Under the pieces are notes generated by a model. The model did not search any database, was not told the origin of the DNA, and was given only the letters and a program-made list of their open reading frames with translations. 53,795 bases of DNA from a virus: the UHGV virus genome UHGV-0191815. One strand, given 5' to 3'. The stretch's first letter is position 1, and the number at the start of each line of letters is the position of its first letter. The position numbers and the translations under genes are program-made. Shown piece by piece: positions 1,821-13,909 of the stretch.

Positions 1821-4604
1821 ATGATTTACACAACTGGAACAATTGCCATTAATGGCAACACTGTTAATGGCGCGGGGACAAACTTCTCCGAGCCGCTTTC
1901 TCTCATTCGTGTGGGCTGCACGCTTATTGCTATCAGCAACCCTATCCAGATCTTTACAGTTACAGAAATCAAGAGCAGCACAGAACTGTCAGTAACGCCA
2001 GCGGCTAACCCTGCAATTGCTGCCGGAACAAAATTTAGCATTCTGCTTTCCGACTCGATCTCAGTTGATGGGCTTGCTCAGGACGTAGCTGAAACGCTGC
2101 GTTACTACCAGGGCAAGGAATCAGAGATCGCAACGGCGGTCGAGTGGTGGAATGAGTTCGGCGGTGATGGTCAGATGGAGCAACTTCTTGCCGACATTCG
2201 CACAGAAACGGCGCAATCAACCGCCAACGCTCAAAAAACAGAATCAGACAAAAACGCAGCGGCATCATCAAAAACAGCAGCAGCAAACTCAGCAACCGCA
2301 GCAAAAGCGTCACAGGATGCAGCAAAAGCCAGTGAAACAGCATCCAGCAACAGCAAAAAAGCGGCGGCTACCAGTGAAACCAATGCGGCAAAATCAGCAG
2401 CCGATGCGCTTAACTATCGCAACCAGGCACAGGCCATCACCGGATCTAACATCGGTCTTTCCTCAAATCCTCGAGACTGCCCGGATATTTCAGGAAACCC
2501 ATCAGGTTATCTTGGCTTTCTGCGCATCATGGAAGGGGCTACCGGGTGGCCTTCTATTGCTTCAGGTGAGCGCTATTTGTCTGGCTTTATTTGCCCGACT
2601 TTAGGCAGTGTCCCGGCATTTTCTGGTCTTTTTATAGGGCATATTACCGGCAGTGCTTACACTTATAAGTGGAGCGAATCAACAGGACCGCAATGGGCTA
2701 GACACGCAAGAAAAGATGAATTAGATGAGAATAGCTCACCACAGTTCAGATCTGTAAGTTTAAAAAGAGTTAGTGACTCGACTACCGGATGGGTTGCAGG
2801 AGGTCTTTTATCTAGCGTTTTGGTTGGTACATCAGGATCAGAACGTGTTTACGGTGGACTATACCCTGAGACAAACCTTTCTTTGCCTGACCAATTAACA
2901 CTACATTTGAGATCTGGCGGCGTGAACAGATACGCAAGCCTTAACGTAAACGGTGAATTTATAGCTGACTCTTTCAAACCTAAAAACGCTGAACAGACAA
3001 GGAGAAACATCAACATCCCAACCATAGGCGGTGGCGAGATAATAACAATCGAAGCACCGGAAGGCGTTGAGGATGGGAAGTATTACCCTATAATTATAAA
3101 CGCCAGTTATTACAGCGCGTACATAACTGGCTATCAGATCGATATTGTTACAGCGTCTGGCGCAGGTAATTACCCAATGAACTGTAACACCTTTTCGGGG
3201 TATGTAAGGACTGGTGGGTGGAGCGACAGAAAAGACGGCGGTTATGGTTACTATAATCGTTATAGTGATAAAGAAATCGCTTTACAATCTATCTGCAGTT
3301 CCAGCAAAGACAAAGATAATTTGCTCTTTGTTTTTGTTGAAGCAAGGGCATTTCCTGTTAAAATGCGCTTGCCTGTAGGCGTAACAGCAGAAGCACCAGC
3401 GGCCCAGGTTGTGTATGATAGTGGTAAAGATACAGAAACGATAATCCCGTGGGGTGTATCAGATCCGCTTAGTTCATATAAAAACCTGCAGGTTATGTTT
3501 GACTTCAGGATGGGTCGGTGCGGCTTTTATTCTGCAACGACTGAAGGACTTTATTATATTTGTAGCGGTGGCAGGGTCGGCCTGTTTAACGGAATTACCG
3601 TTGGCGAAGAAATATCTATGACGATGCCAAAGCTAACTATAAATGGCATGATAGGATCATCTAATGGTTACGTTGCACAAACTGACGCTGATTGGAATGG
3701 TCAGCAGTCAGATGGCATAAGCAAGTTTAAACCTATTGCTGGCAATGTTAACACGCCTGAAAACAGCCTAACTTATGGTGGTTTTCATGTTGGATTTAGC
3801 AATAGCCACGCAACTCAATTCGCCGGGCGCAATTCAAAATTCTACGCAAGAAGTTTTGAGGCCGGAGTAGATAAAGGTTGGCGTAGGCTTGCGACGCTTA
3901 ACGATAATCTTGTGCAAAGGTGGACGGGATACCAGGAATTTAAATCAACTGATTTTTATTCCGATACATTCTCAAGAAAACTATCTTTTAAAGTAACAAC
4001 GTCGACAGTAAGAAACGGAGCATTCGAGCTTTGGGGTGATCCAAACAGACCTACCGTTCTTGAGTATAAAATAAGAAATCCAGAGACAGATACAGCACTA
4101 AAATATGCGTTTTACGCGCAACAGAATACTGATGATTCAATAGTATTCAACGTTAACGGCGCTGTGACATGTGTTACAGTGACCCAATCATCAGATCGCG
4201 ATCTGAAGGACAACATTCAGGTTATAGGTGACGCTACCGAAGCAATCCGTAAAATGAACGGGTACACCTACACGCTCAAGGAAAACGGCCTGCCTTACGC
4301 TGGTGTTATCGCTCAGGAGGTCATGGAAGCGCTGCCGGAAGCTGTTGGATCGTTTACTCATTACGGTGAAGCGTTACAAGGCCCAACAGTTGACGGCAAC
4401 GAGCTACGCGAAGAAACTCGTTACCTAAATGTTGATTATGCAGCGGTTACTGGTTTACTTGTCCAGGTGGCACGCGAAACAGATAACCGCGTCACAGAAC
4501 TGGAAGAAGAAAACGCCAGCCTGCGAGCCAACATTGCCGCAATGGATGAGCGCATCGCAAAACTTGAAGCGCTTGTCAGTAAGTTGACCGGAAGCGAAAA
4601 ATAA
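1821..4604 (+). CDS. Side tail fibre protein with C-terminal intramolecular chaperone (peptidase S74-like) domain
   Basis: 927 aa; N-terminus has Ala/Ser/Thr-rich fibre repeats (KAAATSETNAAKS); C-terminus has SDRDLKDNI...YTYTLKE...GVIAQEV...coiled coil, typical of self-cleaving fibre chaperone domains; RBS ggag upstream. Confidence 0.75.
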   Translation: MIYTTGTIAINGNTVNGAGTNFSEPLSLIRVGCTLIAISNPIQIFTVTEIKSSTELSVTPAANPAIAAGTKFSILLSDSISVDGLAQDVAETLRYYQGKESEIATAVEWWNEFGGDGQMEQLLADIRTETAQSTANAQKTESDKNAAASSKTAAANSATAAKASQDAAKASETASSNSKKAAATSETNAAKSAADALNYRNQAQAITGSNIGLSSNPRDCPDISGNPSGYLGFLRIMEGATGWPSIASGERYLSGFICPTLGSVPAFSGLFIGHITGSAYTYKWSESTGPQWARHARKDELDENSSPQFRSVSLKRVSDSTTGWVAGGLLSSVLVGTSGSERVYGGLYPETNLSLPDQLTLHLRSGGVNRYASLNVNGEFIADSFKPKNAEQTRRNINIPTIGGGEIITIEAPEGVEDGKYYPIIINASYYSAYITGYQIDIVTASGAGNYPMNCNTFSGYVRTGGWSDRKDGGYGYYNRYSDKEIALQSICSSSKDKDNLLFVFVEARAFPVKMRLPVGVTAEAPAAQVVYDSGKDTETIIPWGVSDPLSSYKNLQVMFDFRMGRCGFYSATTEGLYYICSGGRVGLFNGITVGEEISMTMPKLTINGMIGSSNGYVAQTDADWNGQQSDGISKFKPIAGNVNTPENSLTYGGFHVGFSNSHATQFAGRNSKFYARSFEAGVDKGWRRLATLNDNLVQRWTGYQEFKSTDFYSDTFSRKLSFKVTTSTVRNGAFELWGDPNRPTVLEYKIRNPETDTALKYAFYAQQNTDDSIVFNVNGAVTCVTVTQSSDRDLKDNIQVIGDATEAIRKMNGYTYTLKENGLPYAGVIAQEVMEALPEAVGSFTHYGEALQGPTVDGNELREETRYLNVDYAAVTGLLVQVARETDNRVTELEEENASLRANIAAMDERIAKLEALVSKLTGSEK

Positions 4605-4634
4605 GAGGTGATGTGCGAAGAACATCGCCGCGCG

Positions 4635-4662
4635 AAACGAGGCTAACGCCTCGTTTCTTTTT
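4635..4662 (+). terminator. Intrinsic terminator after the tail fibre gene
   Basis: Stem aaacgaggc / gcctcgttt with loop taac, followed by cttttt. Confidence 0.6.
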
Positions 4663-4917
4663 GTGTACCAAATTGTGACCAAATTGATAAATCAAAAACA
4701 AAAACAAAACATAACACATTGAATACAAATGAATTTTTCATTAAGTTATCCATTCAAAAGATAAGTAGGTAACGCCATTTCTATCATTTCACATCGTGTC
4801 ACATCGTCACCGCTTCACATTGATTTTAAAAGAAATATTTATTCTATCGTGTCATATCGTTCCCTATCGTGTTACTATCCATGCGTAAAATGTGTGTACC
4901 AAATAGTGACCAAAATT
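4662..4917 (+). promoter_or_regulatory. Integrase upstream region with repeats; candidate attP / arm-type binding sites
   Basis: Two near-identical 23-bp direct repeats tgtgtaccaaatWgtgaccaaa (4662-4684 and 4893-4915) flank an AT-rich stretch carrying short 10-bp-phased repeats (acatcgtgtc / acatcgtcac at 4791-4810; tatcgt at 4845, 4855, 4865). Confidence 0.35.
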
Positions 4918-6117
4918 ATGCTTACAGATACCAAATTACGAAACATTCACGGCAAGCCATACGACGGCCCGGAAGAAGTACCGGACGCTGGCGGATTGTC
5001 TGCCAGGATAAGCCCGCGCGGAGTTATATCTTTCCAGTATCGCTACCGATTCAACGGCAAGCCTCGACGGATGAAGATTGGCACATACGGAGAAATAACA
5101 CTCAAAGAAGCGCGGGCGGCGGTGGCGGAGCATAAGGAAGTGCTAAACTCAGGCCGAGATCCATCGGTAGCAAAAAGAATGCACCTTTCCCGCGTTACGA
5201 CACGGGCAACGGTTGAGGATATTGTAAGGGAGTACATGGAATCGCCGCAGGCAAGGAACATGGTCAATTATAAGCAGGTTGAGGCCATGCTAGATAAGCA
5301 CGTCATAAAACCATACGGTAGCTATATAGTCGATGATATGGACGCTATGATGTGGGAGGGGGTTTTTAGAAAGGTAGCCAGCGGTGGCGCACCAGTTCAG
5401 GCAGGTATAGTTCTCAACAGAATGAAGGCCGTAATAAAATACGCCATTCGCCGCCGCCGCGTGGATCGTGACGATATATCATTGCTGTGCGTTAAAGACG
5501 TTGGCAAAAAACCAGCGCAAGGCAAGCGAGTTTTGTCAATACAGGAGATCCACCGCCTAATCGGCCTTATAGACAGTTCAAAAATGGCGCGGCTGAATCA
5601 GATATTGATGAAGCTGATTATATTTACCGGGTGCAGGACAAGCGAACTGACAAACGCAAGGCGCGAGCATTTCGATCTTGATAGCTGCGTGTGGACGGTT
5701 CCTGGTGCATTGAGTAAGAACAGGAATGAGTTTAAGCGCGGTTTATCGGGCGTTAGCGTGGCTTTATTGCGTGAGGCTATGGATCTGCATAGCTTTAATT
5801 TTGTCTTCGTTCCTGTGCTTTCTGGAAGGGATGAGGCGGTGGATAGAAGTGTACCAAAAACAGCAGCTAGGGATTTAATGATGAGGATGGGCGGCGAGCC
5901 GTGGTCATGTCACGATCTACGCCGCACCGTGAGGACAAACCTTTCAGCGCTTGGCGTTGCGCCTCACGTCGCGGAAAAGGTTTTGGGGCACAAGCTGGCG
6001 GGAATGTTGGCTATATACGATCAGTATGACTATGTGAGGGAACAAATAGAGGCGATGAATAAGCTGGCTGATTATTACATGAAGCCCATTGACTTACAAA
6101 ATGAAATAACATCCTGA
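4918..6117 (+). CDS. int: Tyrosine integrase, P4-like family
   Basis: N-terminus MLTDTKLRNIHGKPYDGPEEVPDAGGLSARISPRGVISFQYRYRFNGKPRRMKIGTYGEITLKEARAAV matches the P4-type integrase N-terminal domain; C-terminal catalytic region has HDLRRT and Y; the ORF-track start at 4849 is an upstream extension. Confidence 0.85.
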   Translation: MLTDTKLRNIHGKPYDGPEEVPDAGGLSARISPRGVISFQYRYRFNGKPRRMKIGTYGEITLKEARAAVAEHKEVLNSGRDPSVAKRMHLSRVTTRATVEDIVREYMESPQARNMVNYKQVEAMLDKHVIKPYGSYIVDDMDAMMWEGVFRKVASGGAPVQAGIVLNRMKAVIKYAIRRRRVDRDDISLLCVKDVGKKPAQGKRVLSIQEIHRLIGLIDSSKMARLNQILMKLIIFTGCRTSELTNARREHFDLDSCVWTVPGALSKNRNEFKRGLSGVSVALLREAMDLHSFNFVFVPVLSGRDEAVDRSVPKTAARDLMMRMGGEPWSCHDLRRTVRTNLSALGVAPHVAEKVLGHKLAGMLAIYDQYDYVREQIEAMNKLADYYMKPIDLQNEITS

Positions 6118-6173
6118 TAACGGTAAAGAGAACCGCCGCGCTTTAATGCTGGCATCCCCTTAACGGGTTCAGG

Positions 6174-6206
6174 GAATGGAGTACCTGAATCCTTCCATTT
6201 TTTAAT
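6174..6206 (+). terminator. Putative terminator after int
   Basis: Short hairpin (aatgga...tccatt) followed by ttttttaat. Confidence 0.3.
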
Positions 6207-6291
6207 CAGCTTAAAAAATGCCGACTTACTCAGCCCGCCCAACATTTTTTGCACTTGCTCACGATTAATAAGGATTGTCCGACCTTATCCA

Positions 6292-6945
6292 TTATCTTTC
6301 CCCCGTGTATTCAACGTGTCCGATACATCCATCAATAATAGCTTGCGCCATATTGCGATAATCACGCGTAAATTCACTGTCACGGCTAAAGTCGATCTCG
6401 CTTGCCGCGTCGTTACCCATAACCTTAGTGGCAAGTGCGAACGCTATTCCAGCGAGCGCCTTTTCTTTAGGATCTACATACAGCCTGAAAGAGTATGATG
6501 CCAATGATTGAGGCTTCTCTTCACAATCATCTTCCTTGCTTTCACATATGCCCCATTTATCACCAACATATTTAAATTTAACGACATCGAGAACCCTCCC
6601 GCTCGTAAGACCTACACAATCAAGCCACACACCAACCGGAGGCTTTTCGCCTGCCAGCCATTCCGTTTTTTCTGGTTGCGTTTCGCAATCACTGCGCTCA
6701 TCTTCGATTAATTCATCAATGATTTCACTTTCTTTATTCATACCGTCATCATCCTTTTCAGAGAAACGTATAAAGCGCCACGTATTAGCCATCAACGTAT
6801 AAGATTCGCCGCCAACCTTAGATCCTGCGTAATACTCCGTACCAAAATCGTAATAGCTCGAAAACGTTGTCACTTCGAAAGGCGGAATATCAACGCGGAA
6901 CCTGTGAAGCATTGTGCCTATTGCACGAGGTGTTTTATTTGCCAT
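6292..6945 (-). CDS. Hypothetical acidic protein (217 aa); last gene of the minus-strand operon
   Basis: Long ORF with ordinary composition and an acidic central region (DELIEDERSDCETQPEKTE); start codon sits 2 nt downstream of the stop of the 58-aa gene. Confidence 0.55.
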   Translation of the reverse strand: MANKTPRAIGTMLHRFRVDIPPFEVTTFSSYYDFGTEYYAGSKVGGESYTLMANTWRFIRFSEKDDDGMNKESEIIDELIEDERSDCETQPEKTEWLAGEKPPVGVWLDCVGLTSGRVLDVVKFKYVGDKWGICESKEDDCEEKPQSLASYSFRLYVDPKEKALAGIAFALATKVMGNDAASEIDFSRDSEFTRDYRNMAQAIIDGCIGHVEYTGER

Positions 6946-6947
6946 AT

Positions 6948-7123
6948 TACGCCACCGTTACATTGTCAACTTTGATAAAGTATTCAGGGTGATTTTCTAT
7001 TTCGTGCTTGAAGTGCGCGTGACACAATCGCCACTCCCGCGCCTGGTTGTGGAAGTAATAAACATATTCGCCATCAATCTTATACAAAATGCCCGTAGGT
7101 TTAGCCATGTAGTAACGAACCAT
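6948..7123 (-). CDS. Hypothetical small protein (58 aa)
   Basis: MVRYYMAKPTGILYKIDGEYVYYFHNQAREWRLCHAHFKHEIENHPEYFIKVDNVTVA; its ATG overlaps the ninB stop (TAATG), suggesting translational coupling; not in the ORF track because it is under 60 aa. Confidence 0.4.
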
Positions 7124-7554
7124 TATTGCCCCCAGCGTTTTATAAATTCCTCGTTTAACTTAGTATCGCCAGACCACTGAACACCGTGTTCAGCGCCGAA
7201 CGAGTAGATCAGTTCGATTAATTCGATAAATTCTGCTTTACTCATTCTGCTTGTTGACGTACCCAGTACAACAAACCCTGATTTATCCAGGTTAGGGACA
7301 ACGCCATATTTCTTAAGTCCGGCAGTAAATACCGCTTTCCAGTCTTCCGGTGACAGCTTTTTCCCGTACCAATTGACCTGCTCGCTAACGTCTGTCAGCA
7401 GCGCCCAAAGCAACGCGTTTTGACTCAGTGAGCGGGTCTTCTCCTGGATGGTAATGACCAGCGGGCTTTTGCTATCAGGCTGGATCTCTCTTATCTGCCT
7501 GATAGCATTTTCTTTCACGGCGTCGTTTACTATCTCAAATCTAATTTGCCTCAT
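7123..7554 (-). CDS. ninB: NinB-like recombination protein (lambda NinB/Orf family)
   Basis: Collinear similarity to lambda NinB: ...PLVITIQEKTRSLSQNALLWALLTDVSEQVNWYGKKLSPEDWKAVFTAGLKKYGVVPNL...GFVVLGTSTSRMSKAEF. Confidence 0.8.
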   Translation of the reverse strand: MRQIRFEIVNDAVKENAIRQIREIQPDSKSPLVITIQEKTRSLSQNALLWALLTDVSEQVNWYGKKLSPEDWKAVFTAGLKKYGVVPNLDKSGFVVLGTSTSRMSKAEFIELIELIYSFGAEHGVQWSGDTKLNEEFIKRWGQ

Positions 7555-7748
7555 GATACACCGTTACTATTTTCACGCGGTGCACGCGCATACATGATTG
7601 CCCATAAAGAAATAAGCCTTGAACTAGACATAAAATCGTTTTTAAGTTTTTTCATATCAATGACGACAGGGCGATCAGGATCATCGCCTCGCATGTATTC
7701 CGCAATAGTGCTCATGTCTTCAACAGTCAAATCAAGTTCTTTGTCCAT
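7551..7748 (-). CDS. Hypothetical protein (65 aa, start MDKELDL)
   Basis: Internal ATG preceded by RBS aaggtgggg; the ORF-track 5' extension (7551..7832) overlaps the upstream gene. Confidence 0.45.
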   Translation of the reverse strand: MDKELDLTVEDMSTIAEYMRGDDPDRPVVIDMKKLKNDFMSSSRLISLWAIMYARAPRENSNGVS

Positions 7749-7758
7749 AATCCCCACC

Positions 7759-7965
7759 TTACACAATACGCATTGTTTTTCGTAATTCACCGCGCAACGC
7801 CTGCAACGCGTAATGAATAGGCACAAAAGCACGGTTAAATTTTACGTGCCTGTATTTGCGCATTAGTGGCGGCGTATAAACCATCGCGCCGCAAGGATCG
7901 CATGGGAATTTAAAGTGAGATTCGTCAATAAACGTTTCTACTGAATAAAAAATTACCCGTCTCAT
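7759..7965 (-). CDS. Hypothetical protein (68 aa)
   Basis: Tightly packed ORF in the operon; start overlaps the stop of the upstream gene. Confidence 0.4.
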   Translation of the reverse strand: MRRVIFYSVETFIDESHFKFPCDPCGAMVYTPPLMRKYRHVKFNRAFVPIHYALQALRGELRKTMRIV

Positions 7966-8519
7966 AATTCCAACCCCGTTTCGCCGTTAAGTTTTTCGAT
8001 CTCAAATACTGGTTTATCAGGTAGCAGGCCGTTATTTTTCCGGTATTCGTTCAGACGGCTGTCAAAGTCAAACGCCAAATCATTAGCGTGACCGAATCGC
8101 CCAGGTTTAAACAATGAGTAAAAGTTAACCCCGTGTCGGTTAGGGTCAACGCAAAGCGTTTCATCAATAACCATTAAACGCAGAGTCCGAGATAGATAAT
8201 TCCACGGAATACCCGTTTCCGCGCTAATGTCGCGCATACGCTTTTTAACGCTGTAGTCACCAAATAACGCAGCGACGCGCTCGCGACGTTCAGCATATAA
8301 CTGTTTAATACGATAACCAAGCAGTCTGCGGCGGCGTCCAAAACATGTATACACGCGCTCGACGATGCCGTTTTTTATTAAGTGTTTAATTGTCTCAGGC
8401 ATGATTCCATCCTTATCATACCCGACCAATAATCCTGTTTTCTGTCGTAACTGGTGCATTGTTGCGATGCCATCAAGTTCAAGGATATTGATAATTTTTG
8501 TTTCAATTTCAGCGCTCAT
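7962..8519 (-). CDS. Hypothetical protein (185 aa), possible winged-helix protein
   Basis: ORF with RBS gagg; immediately downstream of the helicase gene. Confidence 0.5.
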   Translation of the reverse strand: MSAEIETKIINILELDGIATMHQLRQKTGLLVGYDKDGIMPETIKHLIKNGIVERVYTCFGRRRRLLGYRIKQLYAERRERVAALFGDYSVKKRMRDISAETGIPWNYLSRTLRLMVIDETLCVDPNRHGVNFYSLFKPGRFGHANDLAFDFDSRLNEYRKNNGLLPDKPVFEIEKLNGETGLEL

Positions 8520-8595
8520 TTTTAGCCTCGTTTAAAACGCGATAACAGCCACCAGAAAGCGGTAAACTTTCCGGCAAGCTGTTTGCTAATATTGA

Positions 8596-10011
8596 TTAAA
8601 AGGATGCGTTATTCTGATTGTTTCGTTGGTTAAAACGGCTTGTGCGATGATTCATTGACTGAATGCACGCTGCGGCTGCGCGCGCCTGGTCGCATGGCAA
8701 GATATTACCGTTGTCATCAAACCGCTGGTAAACAGTTCCAGACTTACCATGACGGTTTTTTGACACAATGATTTCCATATATTCGCGAGCAACAGACTGT
8801 TCGTCGTAATATCCATCGCGGTAAACCATGATGATCCTGTCGGCATCTTGCTCAAGGTTGCCAGAATCACGAAGATCAGAATTATTAGGGCGCTTGTTCG
8901 GTCGCTCCTCAACGCGGCGGGACAATTGCGCCAGCGCCAACACTGGTACACGCAATTCTTTAGCCATCATCTTTAACGACCACGACAATTGCCCTACGGC
9001 GAGATCATGACGTTCGGCCTTAGCCAGCTTCATTAACCCGATATAGTCAATCATTACCATACCCAGGTTCGGGTGATCCTGCTTCATGCGTTCCGTTGTT
9101 GCGCGTATTTCCTCAACCGTTAACTGCGACGCGTCAACGATCCACACATCAAGGTTAGCAAGTGCGCTCATACCCTGGCCGACATGCGCCCAACCTTCAT
9201 CATCAAGTTTTACCGGATTGCGCAGGCAGTCAGTTGATAAATTACCAGCGCCAGCGATAGCCCGCTCAGTCATCTGATCGAGTGACATTTCAAGCGTGAA
9301 CAGCAAAACGCCAACCCGCTGATCTTTACTGCCAGGGTAAGGGCGTTCAGCGGCTGCGCGGGCAATTGTCAGCGCCAACGCAGATTTACCAGACCCAGGG
9401 CGTCCGGCGAGAAGCACCAAATCAGTAGCGTTAATGCCGCCCAACATTTCGTCGAGTGGTTCTATACCTGTTTTGATGTTGTCAGAATTGACACCGCATT
9501 CCATGCGCTTACTTAAAACATCCGTATATTCCTGTACCGCATCGCGCAACAGAACAGGAATGATCTTGTCTTTCGTTACCTTTAATTTTGAATACCGGGA
9601 ATCAAAATCTTTCATCGTCTCTTTGACGACCTCAAGCGTCCCCGTCTCCAGTTTGTAGCGCATATCGTCGATTAGTTCCAACATCTGCCGCCGCTGGTGC
9701 TCTTCACGTAGTAACTGTGCGTATCCCTTCAGGTTGGCAGCAGACGGGCACGATCGCGCCGTTTGCATCAGCGGTACAAAGTTTTCATTGCCAATCTCAT
9801 CACCTACCAGCAATGCATCTATGAGATTTCTGTTTCTGGCTTGCGCCCGGATAACTTCAAACGCACGTTTATAGAGCGGGATCGTGAACACTTCAGGATC
9901 AAGCGTGGCGAGAACATCTTGCGCGTTAGGAGTAAGACCGCCCAACAGCAGCCCGCCGATAACTGACGCCTCACGTTCCTGCCGTAGCGAGTTTATTTGC
10001 TCAGTTACCAT
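8596..10011 (-). CDS. Replicative DNA helicase, DnaB-like
   Basis: Walker A GRPGSGKSALAL; DnaB-type N-terminal domain (SVIGGLLLG...) and RecA-like C-terminal domain (...VLALAQLSR...). Confidence 0.85.
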   Translation of the reverse strand: MVTEQINSLRQEREASVIGGLLLGGLTPNAQDVLATLDPEVFTIPLYKRAFEVIRAQARNRNLIDALLVGDEIGNENFVPLMQTARSCPSAANLKGYAQLLREEHQRRQMLELIDDMRYKLETGTLEVVKETMKDFDSRYSKLKVTKDKIIPVLLRDAVQEYTDVLSKRMECGVNSDNIKTGIEPLDEMLGGINATDLVLLAGRPGSGKSALALTIARAAAERPYPGSKDQRVGVLLFTLEMSLDQMTERAIAGAGNLSTDCLRNPVKLDDEGWAHVGQGMSALANLDVWIVDASQLTVEEIRATTERMKQDHPNLGMVMIDYIGLMKLAKAERHDLAVGQLSWSLKMMAKELRVPVLALAQLSRRVEERPNKRPNNSDLRDSGNLEQDADRIIMVYRDGYYDEQSVAREYMEIIVSKNRHGKSGTVYQRFDDNGNILPCDQARAAAACIQSMNHRTSRFNQRNNQNNASF

Positions 10012-11181: not shown

Positions 11182-11924
11182 CTATTTGCACGCAAAAAGT
11201 TCAGACACCCAAAGTTGACCCTTAGCAGTAAATAGTGATTGTACATAACCAGCATCCGAACATTTTACCACTCCATAGCCTTTGTCTACGAACCACTGCT
11301 TGAACATACGCCCTCCGCGCTTAATTCGAGTATCGTACACGTCAACCTGTTCGAGTTTTTTGTTGAGTTGCGTAGCAGTCATACCCAAAGGCCTGGCAAC
11401 CTGTGTTGCGTTGCGATACTGTTTGTTTCTCACAATCGCATCACAGACAGCCGCTTTTGGCGCTAATTCCTTGTTTTCCAGCGCCAGCCGTTCAGCTTCT
11501 TTCTGTGCTAATAGTTTTTGTTCCACCTCATCAGCCCATGCGCGAGCCGCAGCAACCGGGTCAGTGAAATCCGGCAAAGCTGGTTTAAAACCGTAATGTC
11601 CATTTTCACGCAAAGCAGGGAGAACATCCTCGCACACCCAATCCTGGAAGCGCTCAGCCGATTCTATTTTTGATCGCATCACAAGGCGGTAAACATCTGA
11701 TTCATGGATTAGCGTTACGCCTTGCGGGATTGGAGCGAATCCCAAATGTTCCATTTCAGAACATTTTATTTTTATCAATGACTTACAGTGATCTTTGATA
11801 GCTTTTGTGGCGTAGCGTAACCAAGCGCCCGCGCCACATCCATTGCAACAAAAGCAGGTTTACCATCATAAATTACAGCAGTGATTTTATTGTCATCAAA
11901 ATTAAAGCACATCAACTCAGACAT
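11182..11924 (-). pseudogene. Antirepressor (Bro-N + KilAC/ANT domains) interrupted by a frameshift near 11775-11780
   Basis: Bro-N N-terminal half (MSELMCFNFDDNKITAVIYDGKPAFVAMDVARALGY) is in ORF 11775..11984; the rest (...FQDWVCEDVLPALRENGHY plus the KilAC region ATQVARPLGMTATQLNKKL) is in ORF 11182..11778 in another frame; junction lies in an A-rich run. Confidence 0.5.
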
Positions 11925-12056
11925 TGTAATTTCTCCGTAAAACGCGCTACAACGCAAAAATCCCACCGCGTAACCCGATTGCACAGGTTGCAGTGTTTTA
12001 TTGCGTCAGATGCGCTTTTAGGTGGCTAATTTTTGATTTACAGACTGATATGAAGG

Positions 12057-12292: not shown

Positions 12293-13345
12293 TCAAAGAG
12301 CGCCTGCGCGTGTATCACGTAGCGTTTTTGGTTTAAGCAGGAAATCAAGTGTCGCAGTGAAGCCATCGCCGAAGTAAAAATCTGAAGCATTGTTTTTGAA
12401 CGTTTCAAAGTAGGCGACAAAGCCGTTAATGCTTTTGTCTTTCAGGTAGTCGGTGAACGCGTAGATCTTGCGTTCAAGATCCCGATCCAGTTCGGCAGGT
12501 GGCAACAGGCCATCAAACGTGCTGTTAAATGCCTCCACTACGTCGGCAGCGTTTGCAGTGGCTGACAGGTTGCGCCATTTTTCAGCATCAGCCAGATACC
12601 CATCAAATTTAGTTACCCGGCAAATGTTAACAGGCTTAGGAGTTCCGCCACGACTACGCCATTGCGTTAAAGCCCACTCAATCACTAATGTGATCTCATC
12701 CTCTGTGTATGCTTTACGTGTTTTTGTTTCTGTCAGTAGTTCTGTAAATGGCTTGGCATCACGACATTTGCATCCTGCCTTGTCGTTGTAGAAGGCCAGG
12801 CAACGCAACGCCGCTTCGTTTATGCCATCATGACTGACTGTTTTTTGTTCACTTTCGACAATACACGTAGTGTATATATCTTTTTCTCTTTCTTCTTCTT
12901 CTTCTAATTCTAATTCATGACCCTTTCCTGACCCGGTCATGACCCTATCATGACCTTTTTGTGTTGGATTGATTAACTTTTCTAATTTTAATTGTTCCTT
13001 CGCTGTGTTTATTGCTGCCCTATATGCGCTTTTAGAAGTCATTGATTGGTCCAGCCTTTTTAATAACTTTAAACAAGTTATGTGGCCCTGAGAACATTCA
13101 AACAAACCAATTTCGATGAAGTATTTCATCATTTCTTCTATACGTTTTTCAGTCGATCCGACGTTTCGCGCAATGATTCTCGCGTCATGTCGTAGGTCAA
13201 AAGTCAGATTATGCTGATCTACGTCATAAGTTATTAGTTCGAGGCAATACCAATAAAGCCCGTACCCTTCCAGGCCATAATCTAACAAAACGTTTTGAAG
13301 TTTTTCATCGCGGTTAGCATCGCTATCGTGCTTAAACCACTTCAT
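12293..13345 (-). CDS. Replication initiation protein (replisome organiser, DUF4373-like N-terminus)
   Basis: N-terminus MKWFKHDSDANRDEKLQNVLLDYGLEGYGLYWYCLELI is typical of phage replication initiators; RBS ggagg; iterons lie inside the gene. Confidence 0.7.
   Translation of the reverse strand: MKWFKHDSDANRDEKLQNVLLDYGLEGYGLYWYCLELITYDVDQHNLTFDLRHDARIIARNVGSTEKRIEEMMKYFIEIGLFECSQGHITCLKLLKRLDQSMTSKSAYRAAINTAKEQLKLEKLINPTQKGHDRVMTGSGKGHELELEEEEEREKDIYTTCIVESEQKTVSHDGINEAALRCLAFYNDKAGCKCRDAKPFTELLTETKTRKAYTEDEITLVIEWALTQWRSRGGTPKPVNICRVTKFDGYLADAEKWRNLSATANAADVVEAFNSTFDGLLPPAELDRDLERKIYAFTDYLKDKSINGFVAYFETFKNNASDFYFGDGFTATLDFLLKPKTLRDTRAGAL
12915..12955. repeat. Candidate origin of replication: four iterons (tcatgaccc / tcctgaccc) with exact 11-bp phasing, next to a polypyrimidine/AT tract
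   Basis: Iteron starts at 12915, 12926, 12937 and 12948; flanking tract tttttctctttcttcttcttcttctaattctaatt (12875-12912); sits in the linker region of the initiator gene, as in lambda O. Confidence 0.55.
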
Positions 13346-13348
13346 AGA

Positions 13349-13603
13349 TCATTCCTCCGGCAATGCAATATCATAAATTTCGCCGTATTCGTCAGCGCGT
13401 TTAATGAATCCTTTGCGGATTAATGAGTTTAATGCGTCAACAGTAGTATGCAGTGGCAGTTCGCAGACTTTTGCGATCTCTTCGCGTGAAGCATGTGCGC
13501 GGCCCTTGTTGTCTGCCTTTTCTGCAAACGCCATTAAGACAATTTTTTGAATCGGGCTGTTAAGTTTTACGTTCCATGCTTTGCTAATCATGTTCATACT
13601 CAT
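13349..13603 (-). CDS. Small HTH DNA-binding protein, first gene of the minus-strand early operon (Cro/CII-like position)
   Basis: MSMNMISKAWNVKLNSPIQKIVLMAFAEKADNKGRAHASREEIAKVCELPLHTTVDALNSLIRKGFI; RBS aggag 9 nt upstream of this ATG; divergent from the repressor gene. Confidence 0.55.
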   Translation of the reverse strand: MSMNMISKAWNVKLNSPIQKIVLMAFAEKADNKGRAHASREEIAKVCELPLHTTVDALNSLIRKGFIKRADEYGEIYDIALPEE

Positions 13604-13909
13604 TGTGTTTTCTCCTATGGTTAAAATGAACGCGCTGGCGGGCATCCCATTATCATTAGATAGCAGTGATTGACCGCTGAACAGATCCCGCCGTTGCGTG
13701 ATATTTGTTTTTCGCATTGCAGCGACACCTGGTTTTTAAAGAGCTTTCAAGGTATGTGCCATTTGTGCTTTCCATTATCTTTTTTCTTGCATCCTTGCAA
13801 CTATGGCCTTACCTTGTCAGCAAGTTTACAGAATGTTGTTAATAGATCAAGGATTGAAAAATACATTTTGTGACTTGCATCAAAAATTTTTAGGTTATAG
13901 GGTAGCGAT
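13604..13909. promoter_or_regulatory. Divergent immunity-region control region (candidate operators and promoters for the repressor gene and the minus-strand early operon)
   Basis: About 300 bp non-coding between divergent HTH genes; contains atacattttgtgact (13861-13875), the palindromes ttgca-tcct-tgcaa and cttg-tcag-caag, and the nut-like element. Confidence 0.5.
13713..13750 (-). promoter_or_regulatory. nut-like element on the minus-strand transcript (boxA-like GCTCTTTAAAAA + hairpin CGCTGCAATGCG)
   Basis: Reverse complement reads agCTCTTTAAAAAccaggtgtCGCTGCAATGCG; near-identical to the plus-strand element at 22441-22474. Confidence 0.45.

Follow-up and report, generated by a model that had tools for sequence, protein, structure and literature searches.

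Two adjacent genes of the temperate coliphage genome UHGV-0191815 (53,795 nucleotides; "the window" hereafter, meaning this whole stretch of DNA) follow ninB on the minus strand, and we refer to them as p58 and p217 after the lengths of their products in amino acids (aa). Both are real genes, core to the mEpimmI (mEp021-like) group of phages to which the window belongs and restricted to that phage clade. The p217 protein joins a near-invariant acidic motif to small beta-barrels that occur as divergent, freely assorting allele classes. The mEpimmI group has been described before, and its members reportedly match lambdoid phages in frequency in the human gut (PMC11893012). The two genes and the parts of p217, the latter delimited from an AlphaFold2 (AF2) model and from sequence variation, are these:

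6947..7123, minus strand: p58, 58 aa, conserved, modelled as a small SH3/Sm-like beta-barrel (b-b-b-b-a-b); open reading frame (ORF)
6292..6945, minus strand: p217, 217 aa, modular; ORF, coordinates including the stop codon
6760..6945, minus strand: N-terminal small beta-barrel of p217, aa 1-62, isoelectric point (pI) 9.2, 3 allele classes; from AF2 strands
6661..6759, minus strand: acidic segment of p217, aa 63-95; from charge, the AF2 confidence score pLDDT and conservation
6694-6744, minus strand: near-invariant motif GMNKESE[IV]IDELIEDER of p217, aa 68-84; from conservation
6475..6660, minus strand: middle small beta-barrel of p217, aa 96-157, hypervariable, 7 allele classes; from AF2 and allele classes
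6295..6474, minus strand: C-terminal helical domain of p217, aa 158-217, conserved; from AF2 helices

A core gene pair confined to mEpimmI phages

We assembled 83 related loci, 41 of them by way of p217 and 42 by way of NinB, independently of the pair. The p58 and p217 reading frames are intact in essentially all of these loci. Both genes are carried at the same position by every NinB-anchored locus that extends far enough (41 of 41), and by all seven sequenced isolates. Thus, p58 and p217 are core genes and not the accessory cargo that a first-pass annotation had proposed for this operon-distal site next to the integrase gene. Nor is a foreign origin of the pair supported by composition, as its GC content (0.43-0.45) is like that of the neighbouring genes (0.40-0.46). 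Between 5.9 and 8.6 kb the window is 84-94% identical to mEp044, mEp013, mEp010, mEp554, mEp021, mEp515, and MagusPhagus.

The gene boundaries of the first-pass annotation were borne out. The p58 ORF begins with an ATG that shares one base with the ninB stop codon (TAATG at 7123), p217 starts 1 nucleotide (nt) past the p58 stop, and Shine-Dalgarno-like motifs 5' of both starts are kept across the relatives. The upstream gene is indeed ninB, its product matching PF05772 with 160.6 bits against a gathering cut-off of 23.8 (E=2.2e-47).

Outside the mEpimmI group the pair is missing from everything that we searched. A tblastn search of 50,697 phage records returned no relatives of p58 or p217 beyond mEpimmI, and the GTDB species-representative genomes contain no relative of the pair. 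Clustered at 90% identity, the p217 proteins fall into 422 groups, every one of them from E. coli or Shigella and labelled hypothetical, and an exhaustive HMMER search of 1.84 billion proteins recovered the family itself only, with 10 representatives, mostly fragments. Of 5426 complete E. coli genomes, 34 have the region, once in each and on the chromosome. Direct orthologues at the same position are gp03 of mEp021 (AXN54122.1), gp03 and gp04 of mEp044 (WWQ70501.1, WWQ70502.1), and CDS0014 and CDS0015 of MagusPhagus. In these phages p217 is 52-79% and p58 91-98% identical to the window; the proteins are annotated as hypothetical only, and the paper on the phage family does not discuss them (PMC11893012).

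Neither protein matched any family in Pfam, PHROGs, NCBIfam, or PADLOC, even when 27 diverse family members were scanned singly, and no PADLOC family was hit at E<=1. The earlier statement that p217 has no recognisable motifs therefore stood, also against the sequences in the PDB, where profile matches were at chance level (MMP2, E=0.57; ELF5 wing, E=0.012; APLF, E=2.3). The best PHROG match of p58 was to an unrelated unknown family (E=0.06), and matches to Ail_Lom and IBIN were dismissed as noise, being below cut-off and limited to single family members. We found no enzymatic or known-family signature in either protein, and no toxin or antitoxin family match in Pfam, NCBIfam, or PADLOC. Remote-homology searching and structure prediction, both suggested in the first-pass annotation, yielded homologues within the family only, together with models that contain small barrels, helices, and an acidic segment predicted to be disordered. 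Homologues with a role in replication or recombination, which that annotation had named as evidence against its proposal, were not found, yet this is because no homologue with any known role exists.

It is extremely improbable that one or both ORFs are non-functional, p58 being a chance spacer and p217 a decaying gene. Such a view could draw on the poor record of p58 in databases, where gene finders rarely call it, only 7 clusters exist, and it is unannotated in mEp021; on its frameshift in MagusPhagus; and on the relatively high overall ratio of non-synonymous to synonymous change (pN/pS) in p217, 0.42 at a synonymous level (pS) of 0.49. However, the frames have stayed intact across about 80 loci at pS of 0.4-0.5, pN/pS is 0.24 for p58 (at pS 0.44) and 0.07-0.30 within the modules of p217, the Shine-Dalgarno motifs are conserved, and the folded domains are confidently modelled. 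In MagusPhagus, a plaque-forming isolate, the p58 frame (3822-3962 of that locus) is broken after residue 46 and annotated as a 46-aa product; unless the break is a sequencing error, p58 can do without its C-terminal strand.

Conserved and exchanged modules of p217

The first-pass annotation described the 217-aa product as acidic. This is correct for the protein as a whole (pI 4.6, with 41 D+E versus 26 K+R), but not for all of its parts: the acidic charge clusters between residues 63 and 95, and the N-terminal domain is itself basic. The AF2 model has a pLDDT of 76.5 overall and of about 85 in the folded domains. It comprises a five-stranded N-terminal barrel (aa 10-60, with strands at 10-14, 23-33, 36-43, 48-52, and 56-60), a stretch predicted to be disordered (aa 63-90, pLDDT 33-47), a second five-stranded barrel (aa 107-155), and C-terminal helices at 159-176, 178-181, and 194-204. 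Both predicted barrels superpose on solved five-stranded small barrels of the SH3/Tudor/KOW type. They, and probably p58 as well, would fall into the SH3/Tudor/KOW/Sm/WYL fold class, which includes the C-terminal Tudor domain of UvrD/PcrA (7egs, 5dma) and the KOW domains of Spt5 (5ohq, 2do3). Small barrels of the SH3/Tudor/KOW/Sm type bind proteins or nucleic acids and are not catalytic. An internal duplication in p217 and descent of p58 as a paralogue of a p217 barrel were both considered and set aside, the hhalign matches (E of 0.08-0.25) not being significant.

The acidic segment is the most conserved part of p217, with a column identity of 0.96-0.97. Within it, the motif GMNKESE[IV]IDELIEDER is near-invariant in 149 unique sequences and shows stronger purifying selection (pN/pS 0.07 at pS 0.41) than any other part of the gene; it also has the top helical hydrophobic moment of the protein. 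As pS is normal here, the constraint acts on the peptide and not on the DNA, and an RNA element or other DNA-level constraint beneath the motif was rejected on the same ground and for want of an Rfam match. From this conservation we infer that the motif would be the signature of a binding element that folds on contact with a conserved partner. The C-terminal domain is likewise well conserved (column identity 0.82-0.95, pN/pS 0.25) and is kept in a 127-aa short form of the protein (P0127).

Directly past a DDDG run, codon 69 of p217 (window 6739-6741) encodes a methionine that is present in 148 of the 149 sequences. Most alleles have AAGGA 10 nt 5' of this codon (6752-6756), and 7 of 42 loci have AAAGA. 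An internal start at Met69 would yield a 149-aa isoform beginning exactly at the invariant motif, which is only an idea suggested by the sequence.

Apart from the motif and the helices, p217 is strikingly variable. It is the most divergent gene of the operon, with a median identity to the window of 65% compared with 95% for DnaB, NinB, and p58. Its variation is organized in allele classes, of which there are 3 for the N barrel, 7 for the middle barrel (down to 21% identity), and 4 for the C domain, occurring in 14 combinations among the 149 unique proteins. Among the module classes assortment is free, as it is between them and the p58 alleles or the type of the downstream xis-like gene. A search for co-variation gave nothing meaningful for the p217 modules with either of these two, nor with the alleles of the 65-aa and 68-aa ORFs upstream of ninB. 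Within classes the barrels are under purifying selection (pN/pS 0.24-0.30; 0.24 for the N barrel), and between classes the synonymous sites are near saturation. Therefore, the modules are old functional cassettes exchanged by recombination rather than products of decay. Alleles shuffled in this manner form a pattern that, to judge from the sequences, is typical of specificity or conflict proteins.

In contrast to p217, p58 is mostly 90-98% identical among relatives. A programmed frameshift fusing p58 to p217 was rejected because the frame relation of the two genes differs between the two junction classes, with gaps of 1 nt and 14 nt. A sole rare lineage, represented by two loci on Logan contigs (L042 from SRR32406413 and L043 from SRR32406926), departs from the common arrangement. 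There (L042 4517-5637), a 246-aa Bro-N/Ant-like gene replaces p58, and p217 is shortened to 127 aa, its N barrel being joined straight to the C-terminal helices without the acidic motif and the middle barrel; an extra 68-aa Rha-like gene lies upstream of ninB. Because all of these parts are missing together, p58 may work with the part of p217 that holds the acidic motif and the middle barrel.

Candidate roles of the pair

The chain of NinB, p58, p217, and Xis is translationally coupled and forms the distal end of the leftward early operon. The left operon of mEpimmI phages has a nutL site and needs the N-like antiterminator Gp17 (PMC11893012). A consensus scan of window positions 4600-8700, including the ninB-int interval, revealed no promoter or terminator signals above chance, although weak promoters could escape such a scan. 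An antiterminated operon without a detectable internal promoter or terminator implies that p58 and p217 should be produced early in lytic growth or after induction, and not in the lysogen.

Small, non-enzymatic genes in an N-antiterminated early operon are also known from other phages, namely NinD, NinE, NinF, Ea8.5, and Ea22 of lambda and the ea genes of P22. In the lambda/P22 layout, such small genes follow ninB or occupy the interval from the recombination genes to xis-int. Unlike in position, the likeness does not extend to sequence: these lambdoid nin and ea ORFs have no relationship to p58 or p217, which did not match their families although Pfam and PHROGs contain them, and p58 in particular had no Pfam match that would place it with NinD, NinE, NinF, or NinH.

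Both proteins look unlike enzymes, membrane proteins, or toxins. On the models, the pair would supply typical binding modules, namely three small SH3/Tudor/Sm-like barrels, an acidic amphipathic segment that is invariant, and a conserved helical domain. That p217 binds at all, to which partners, and to what biological end are points that we infer. Given its divergence and the reshuffling of its modules, an early role directed at the host or at competitors, anti-defence included, stays our best guess, and we tentatively propose that p217 interferes with a variable function of the host or of a competing phage, in the sense of host takeover or anti-defence. To this extent, the anti-defence part of the functions that the first-pass annotation had listed for the pair retains some appeal.

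In such a scheme, p217 would be a modular, non-enzymatic adaptor or inhibitor. Its acidic motif would fold when it binds, and the motif and the conserved C-terminal helices would jointly hold an invariant partner. This partner might be a conserved protein of the phage or of E. coli, and would probably have a basic surface that binds nucleic acids. The two barrels, swapped between phages as pre-existing allele cassettes, would recognise a polymorphic target, and the interference would take place early in lytic growth or after induction. A more specific version, which we consider rather unlikely in its entirety, makes p217 a "plug-and-play" effector: the fixed acidic helix and the C domain would engage a conserved E. 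coli protein, the barrels would redirect it to polymorphic proteins of defence systems or rival phages, and p58 would be the dedicated partner of the acidic and middle-barrel part.

Known acidic proteins offer partial parallels. The acidic domain of APLF (6yn1) and the C-terminal tail of SSB are, like the p217 motif, short acidic-hydrophobic peptides in a disordered region, and both dock onto basic nucleic-acid-binding proteins. We use this as a working analogy only: the similarity of the p217 motif to APLF is not significant (E=2.3), and the motif differs from the SSB tip, DFDDDIPF. The DNA mimics Ocr and ArdA are, like p217, acidic early proteins of phages or plasmids. Unlike them, p217 has its acidity within some 30 residues (aa 63-95), the rest consisting of barrels and helices with a basic N domain, and no family or fold match to ArdA or Ocr places it among the DNA mimics.

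Several observations weigh against interference with a host or competitor function. No homology links p58 or p217 to any function. Positive selection was not detected in p217, with pN/pS below 1 everywhere and thus no direct signature of an arms race, and the diversity of the protein could have arisen from relaxed constraint plus recombination. No co-varying partner gene was found among the nearby genes (adjusted mutual information of at most 0.21). As for p58, its barrel model was built on two sequences with one of five models confident, and the joint loss of p58 and of the p217 insert is a single event. Finally, recombination or excision would be just as plausible a purpose for a core gene with so tight a coupling to NinB and Xis.

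A recombination role deserves to be weighed in its own right. The pair might be an accessory to the recombination or replication machinery and act with NinB, perhaps as a bridge from it to SSB, single-stranded DNA, or the DnaB-like helicase, with the barrels binding nucleic acid and the acidic motif contacting a basic DNA-binding protein. Translational coupling and core status speak for such a role, which we regard as possible but doubtful. The machinery in question (NinB, DnaB) is about 95% conserved, in contrast to the p217 barrels, whose shuffled alleles share as little as 21-29% identity; this is odd for a part that has to fit conserved machinery. Moreover, an HNH endonuclease gene inserted between ninB and p58 in one locus leaves the pair undisturbed, and phages that have NinB outside the mEpimmI group lack relatives of either gene.

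The position of the pair beside the int-xis module, with the p217 stop codon overlapping the xis start in nearly all relatives, would also fit accessories of excision or integration directionality that work with the Xis-like helix-turn-helix (HTH) protein and the integrase. We judge this quite unlikely, as p217 and p58 alleles assort freely and every common middle-barrel allele occurs with both xis/int types. For instance, mEp554 and mEp044 share a p217 allele but differ in the int-xis module, and the two Xis types, at only 44% identity, differ too much for an invariant motif to be tuned to them.

The first-pass annotation further listed exclusion and toxin-antitoxin genes among its candidates. 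A small-plus-large two-gene unit near int, a highly diverse p217, and a slot that took a different, Bro-N/Ant-like gene in one lineage are features that a toxin-antitoxin pair, or a superinfection-exclusion or defence cassette expressed from the prophage as cargo, might well display. Against this, the pair is core rather than patchy, it is coupled to ninB and xis without a promoter of its own that the consensus scan could detect (given that weak ones could escape it), and it lies within an early lytic operon that is antiterminated. Furthermore, it lacks matches in PADLOC, Pfam, and NCBIfam as well as transmembrane or lipoprotein features, and exclusion by mEpimmI phages has already been assigned to Lpp lipoproteins (PMC11893012). 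Thus, a toxin-antitoxin pair or a lysogen-expressed exclusion cassette is very unlikely; what fits the spirit of the earlier proposal is the shuffling of p217 alleles, a pattern to be expected of a specificity or conflict protein.

The pair belongs to the core genome of mEpimmI phages without having known relatives or an assigned function. The genes themselves had already been deposited from relatives as hypothetical proteins; new here are the domain architecture of p217, its invariant motif, and the exchange of its cassettes. At present this makes a well-described ORFan gene pair and not a discovery. The combination of a near-invariant peptide, in a region predicted to be disordered, with swapped barrels nevertheless provides a testable handle in the search for a new phage-host or phage-phage interaction. 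If the "plug-and-play" version were true, p217 would represent a new anti-defence or host-takeover family whose specificity evolves by cassette exchange; if the role were related to recombination, the pair would add new partners to NinB/Orf-mediated recombination.

Neighbouring genes

On the minus strand the early operon runs from an O-like initiator through Ant-like ORFs, a DNA-repair exonuclease, a DnaB-like helicase, a 185-aa winged-helix protein, and two small ORFs to NinB, p58, and p217. The genes that flank the pair are these:

7123..7554, minus strand: ninB, Orf-family recombination mediator, 143 aa; Pfam PF05772 and phrog_72 (E=1.6e-44)
6075..6292, minus strand: fourth coupled gene, HTH, Xis/AlpA-like, 72 aa in relatives and frameshifted here; from alignment with 5 relatives
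6075-6254, minus strand: GTG-initiated remnant ORF of 59 aa
4849..6117, plus strand: tyrosine integrase, convergent with the operon; phrog_1 (E=3e-64)

The first-pass annotation let the operon end with the pair, which does not hold for the relatives. In nearly all of them a 72- or 76-aa HTH gene starts on the p217 stop codon (TAATG), with mEp021, which has a 3-nt gap between the two genes, as an exception. When the window is aligned with five relatives, its copy of the gene proves to lack 1 nt that all of them have, after codon 5 and between 6279 and 6278 (GGTCGG-ACAAT versus GATCGGNACAAT), and this is why the operon appeared to end at p217. Either the assembly is wrong at this point or the lesion is real, in which case excision would be impaired. 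The HTH proteins of relatives match phrog_4745, "DNA binding protein" (E=7.6e-5 and 4.8e-11), and have no match in Pfam or NCBIfam. Between the 72-aa and 76-aa types identity is 44%, and the int modules that accompany them differ. From its sequence and setting, the HTH protein is probably an excisionase or AlpA-like factor.

The likely start of the integrase is the ATG at 4918, which gives a protein of 399 aa, the same length as the annotated mEp044 integrase. The 3' ends of int on the plus strand and of the xis-like gene on the minus strand overlap by 43 nt (window 6075-6117), and the overlap is kept in relatives such as mEp044 (1343-1385); it may leave room for antisense or retroregulation effects. 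Upstream of int and directly past a 927-aa tail-fibre-like gene (1821-4604), a strong hairpin resembling an intrinsic terminator lies on the plus strand at 4634-4657, with a 10-bp stem that includes 6 G-C pairs and is followed by a T run.

NinB is 93-98% identical among relatives and has a pN/pS of 0.05. In the locus with the HNH insertion (L012), ninB is chimeric and only 54% identical overall, and the 152-aa HNH endonuclease gene (3365-3823 of that locus) ends in ...KYWGQ with the TAATG junction to p58 retained. This looks like the insertion of a homing endonuclease that brought flanking ninB sequence along. The two small ORFs 5' of ninB (65 and 68 aa; window 7551-7965, minus strand) occur in several allele classes, with median identities to the window of 77% and 72%, and make a second variable patch within an operon that is otherwise 95% conserved.

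Farther upstream, two more genes of the window appear in pieces. The adjacent and overlapping ORFs of 69 and 198 aa at 11182-11984 (minus strand) match positions 155-198 and 215-408 of the anti-repressor family phrog_130, which suggests a split or frameshifted Ant gene. The replication initiator (12293-13717, minus strand) is likewise found in two ORFs, 3 nt apart: O-like initiator families are matched over their N-terminal 72 positions by the 122-aa ORF and over the remainder by the 350-aa ORF.
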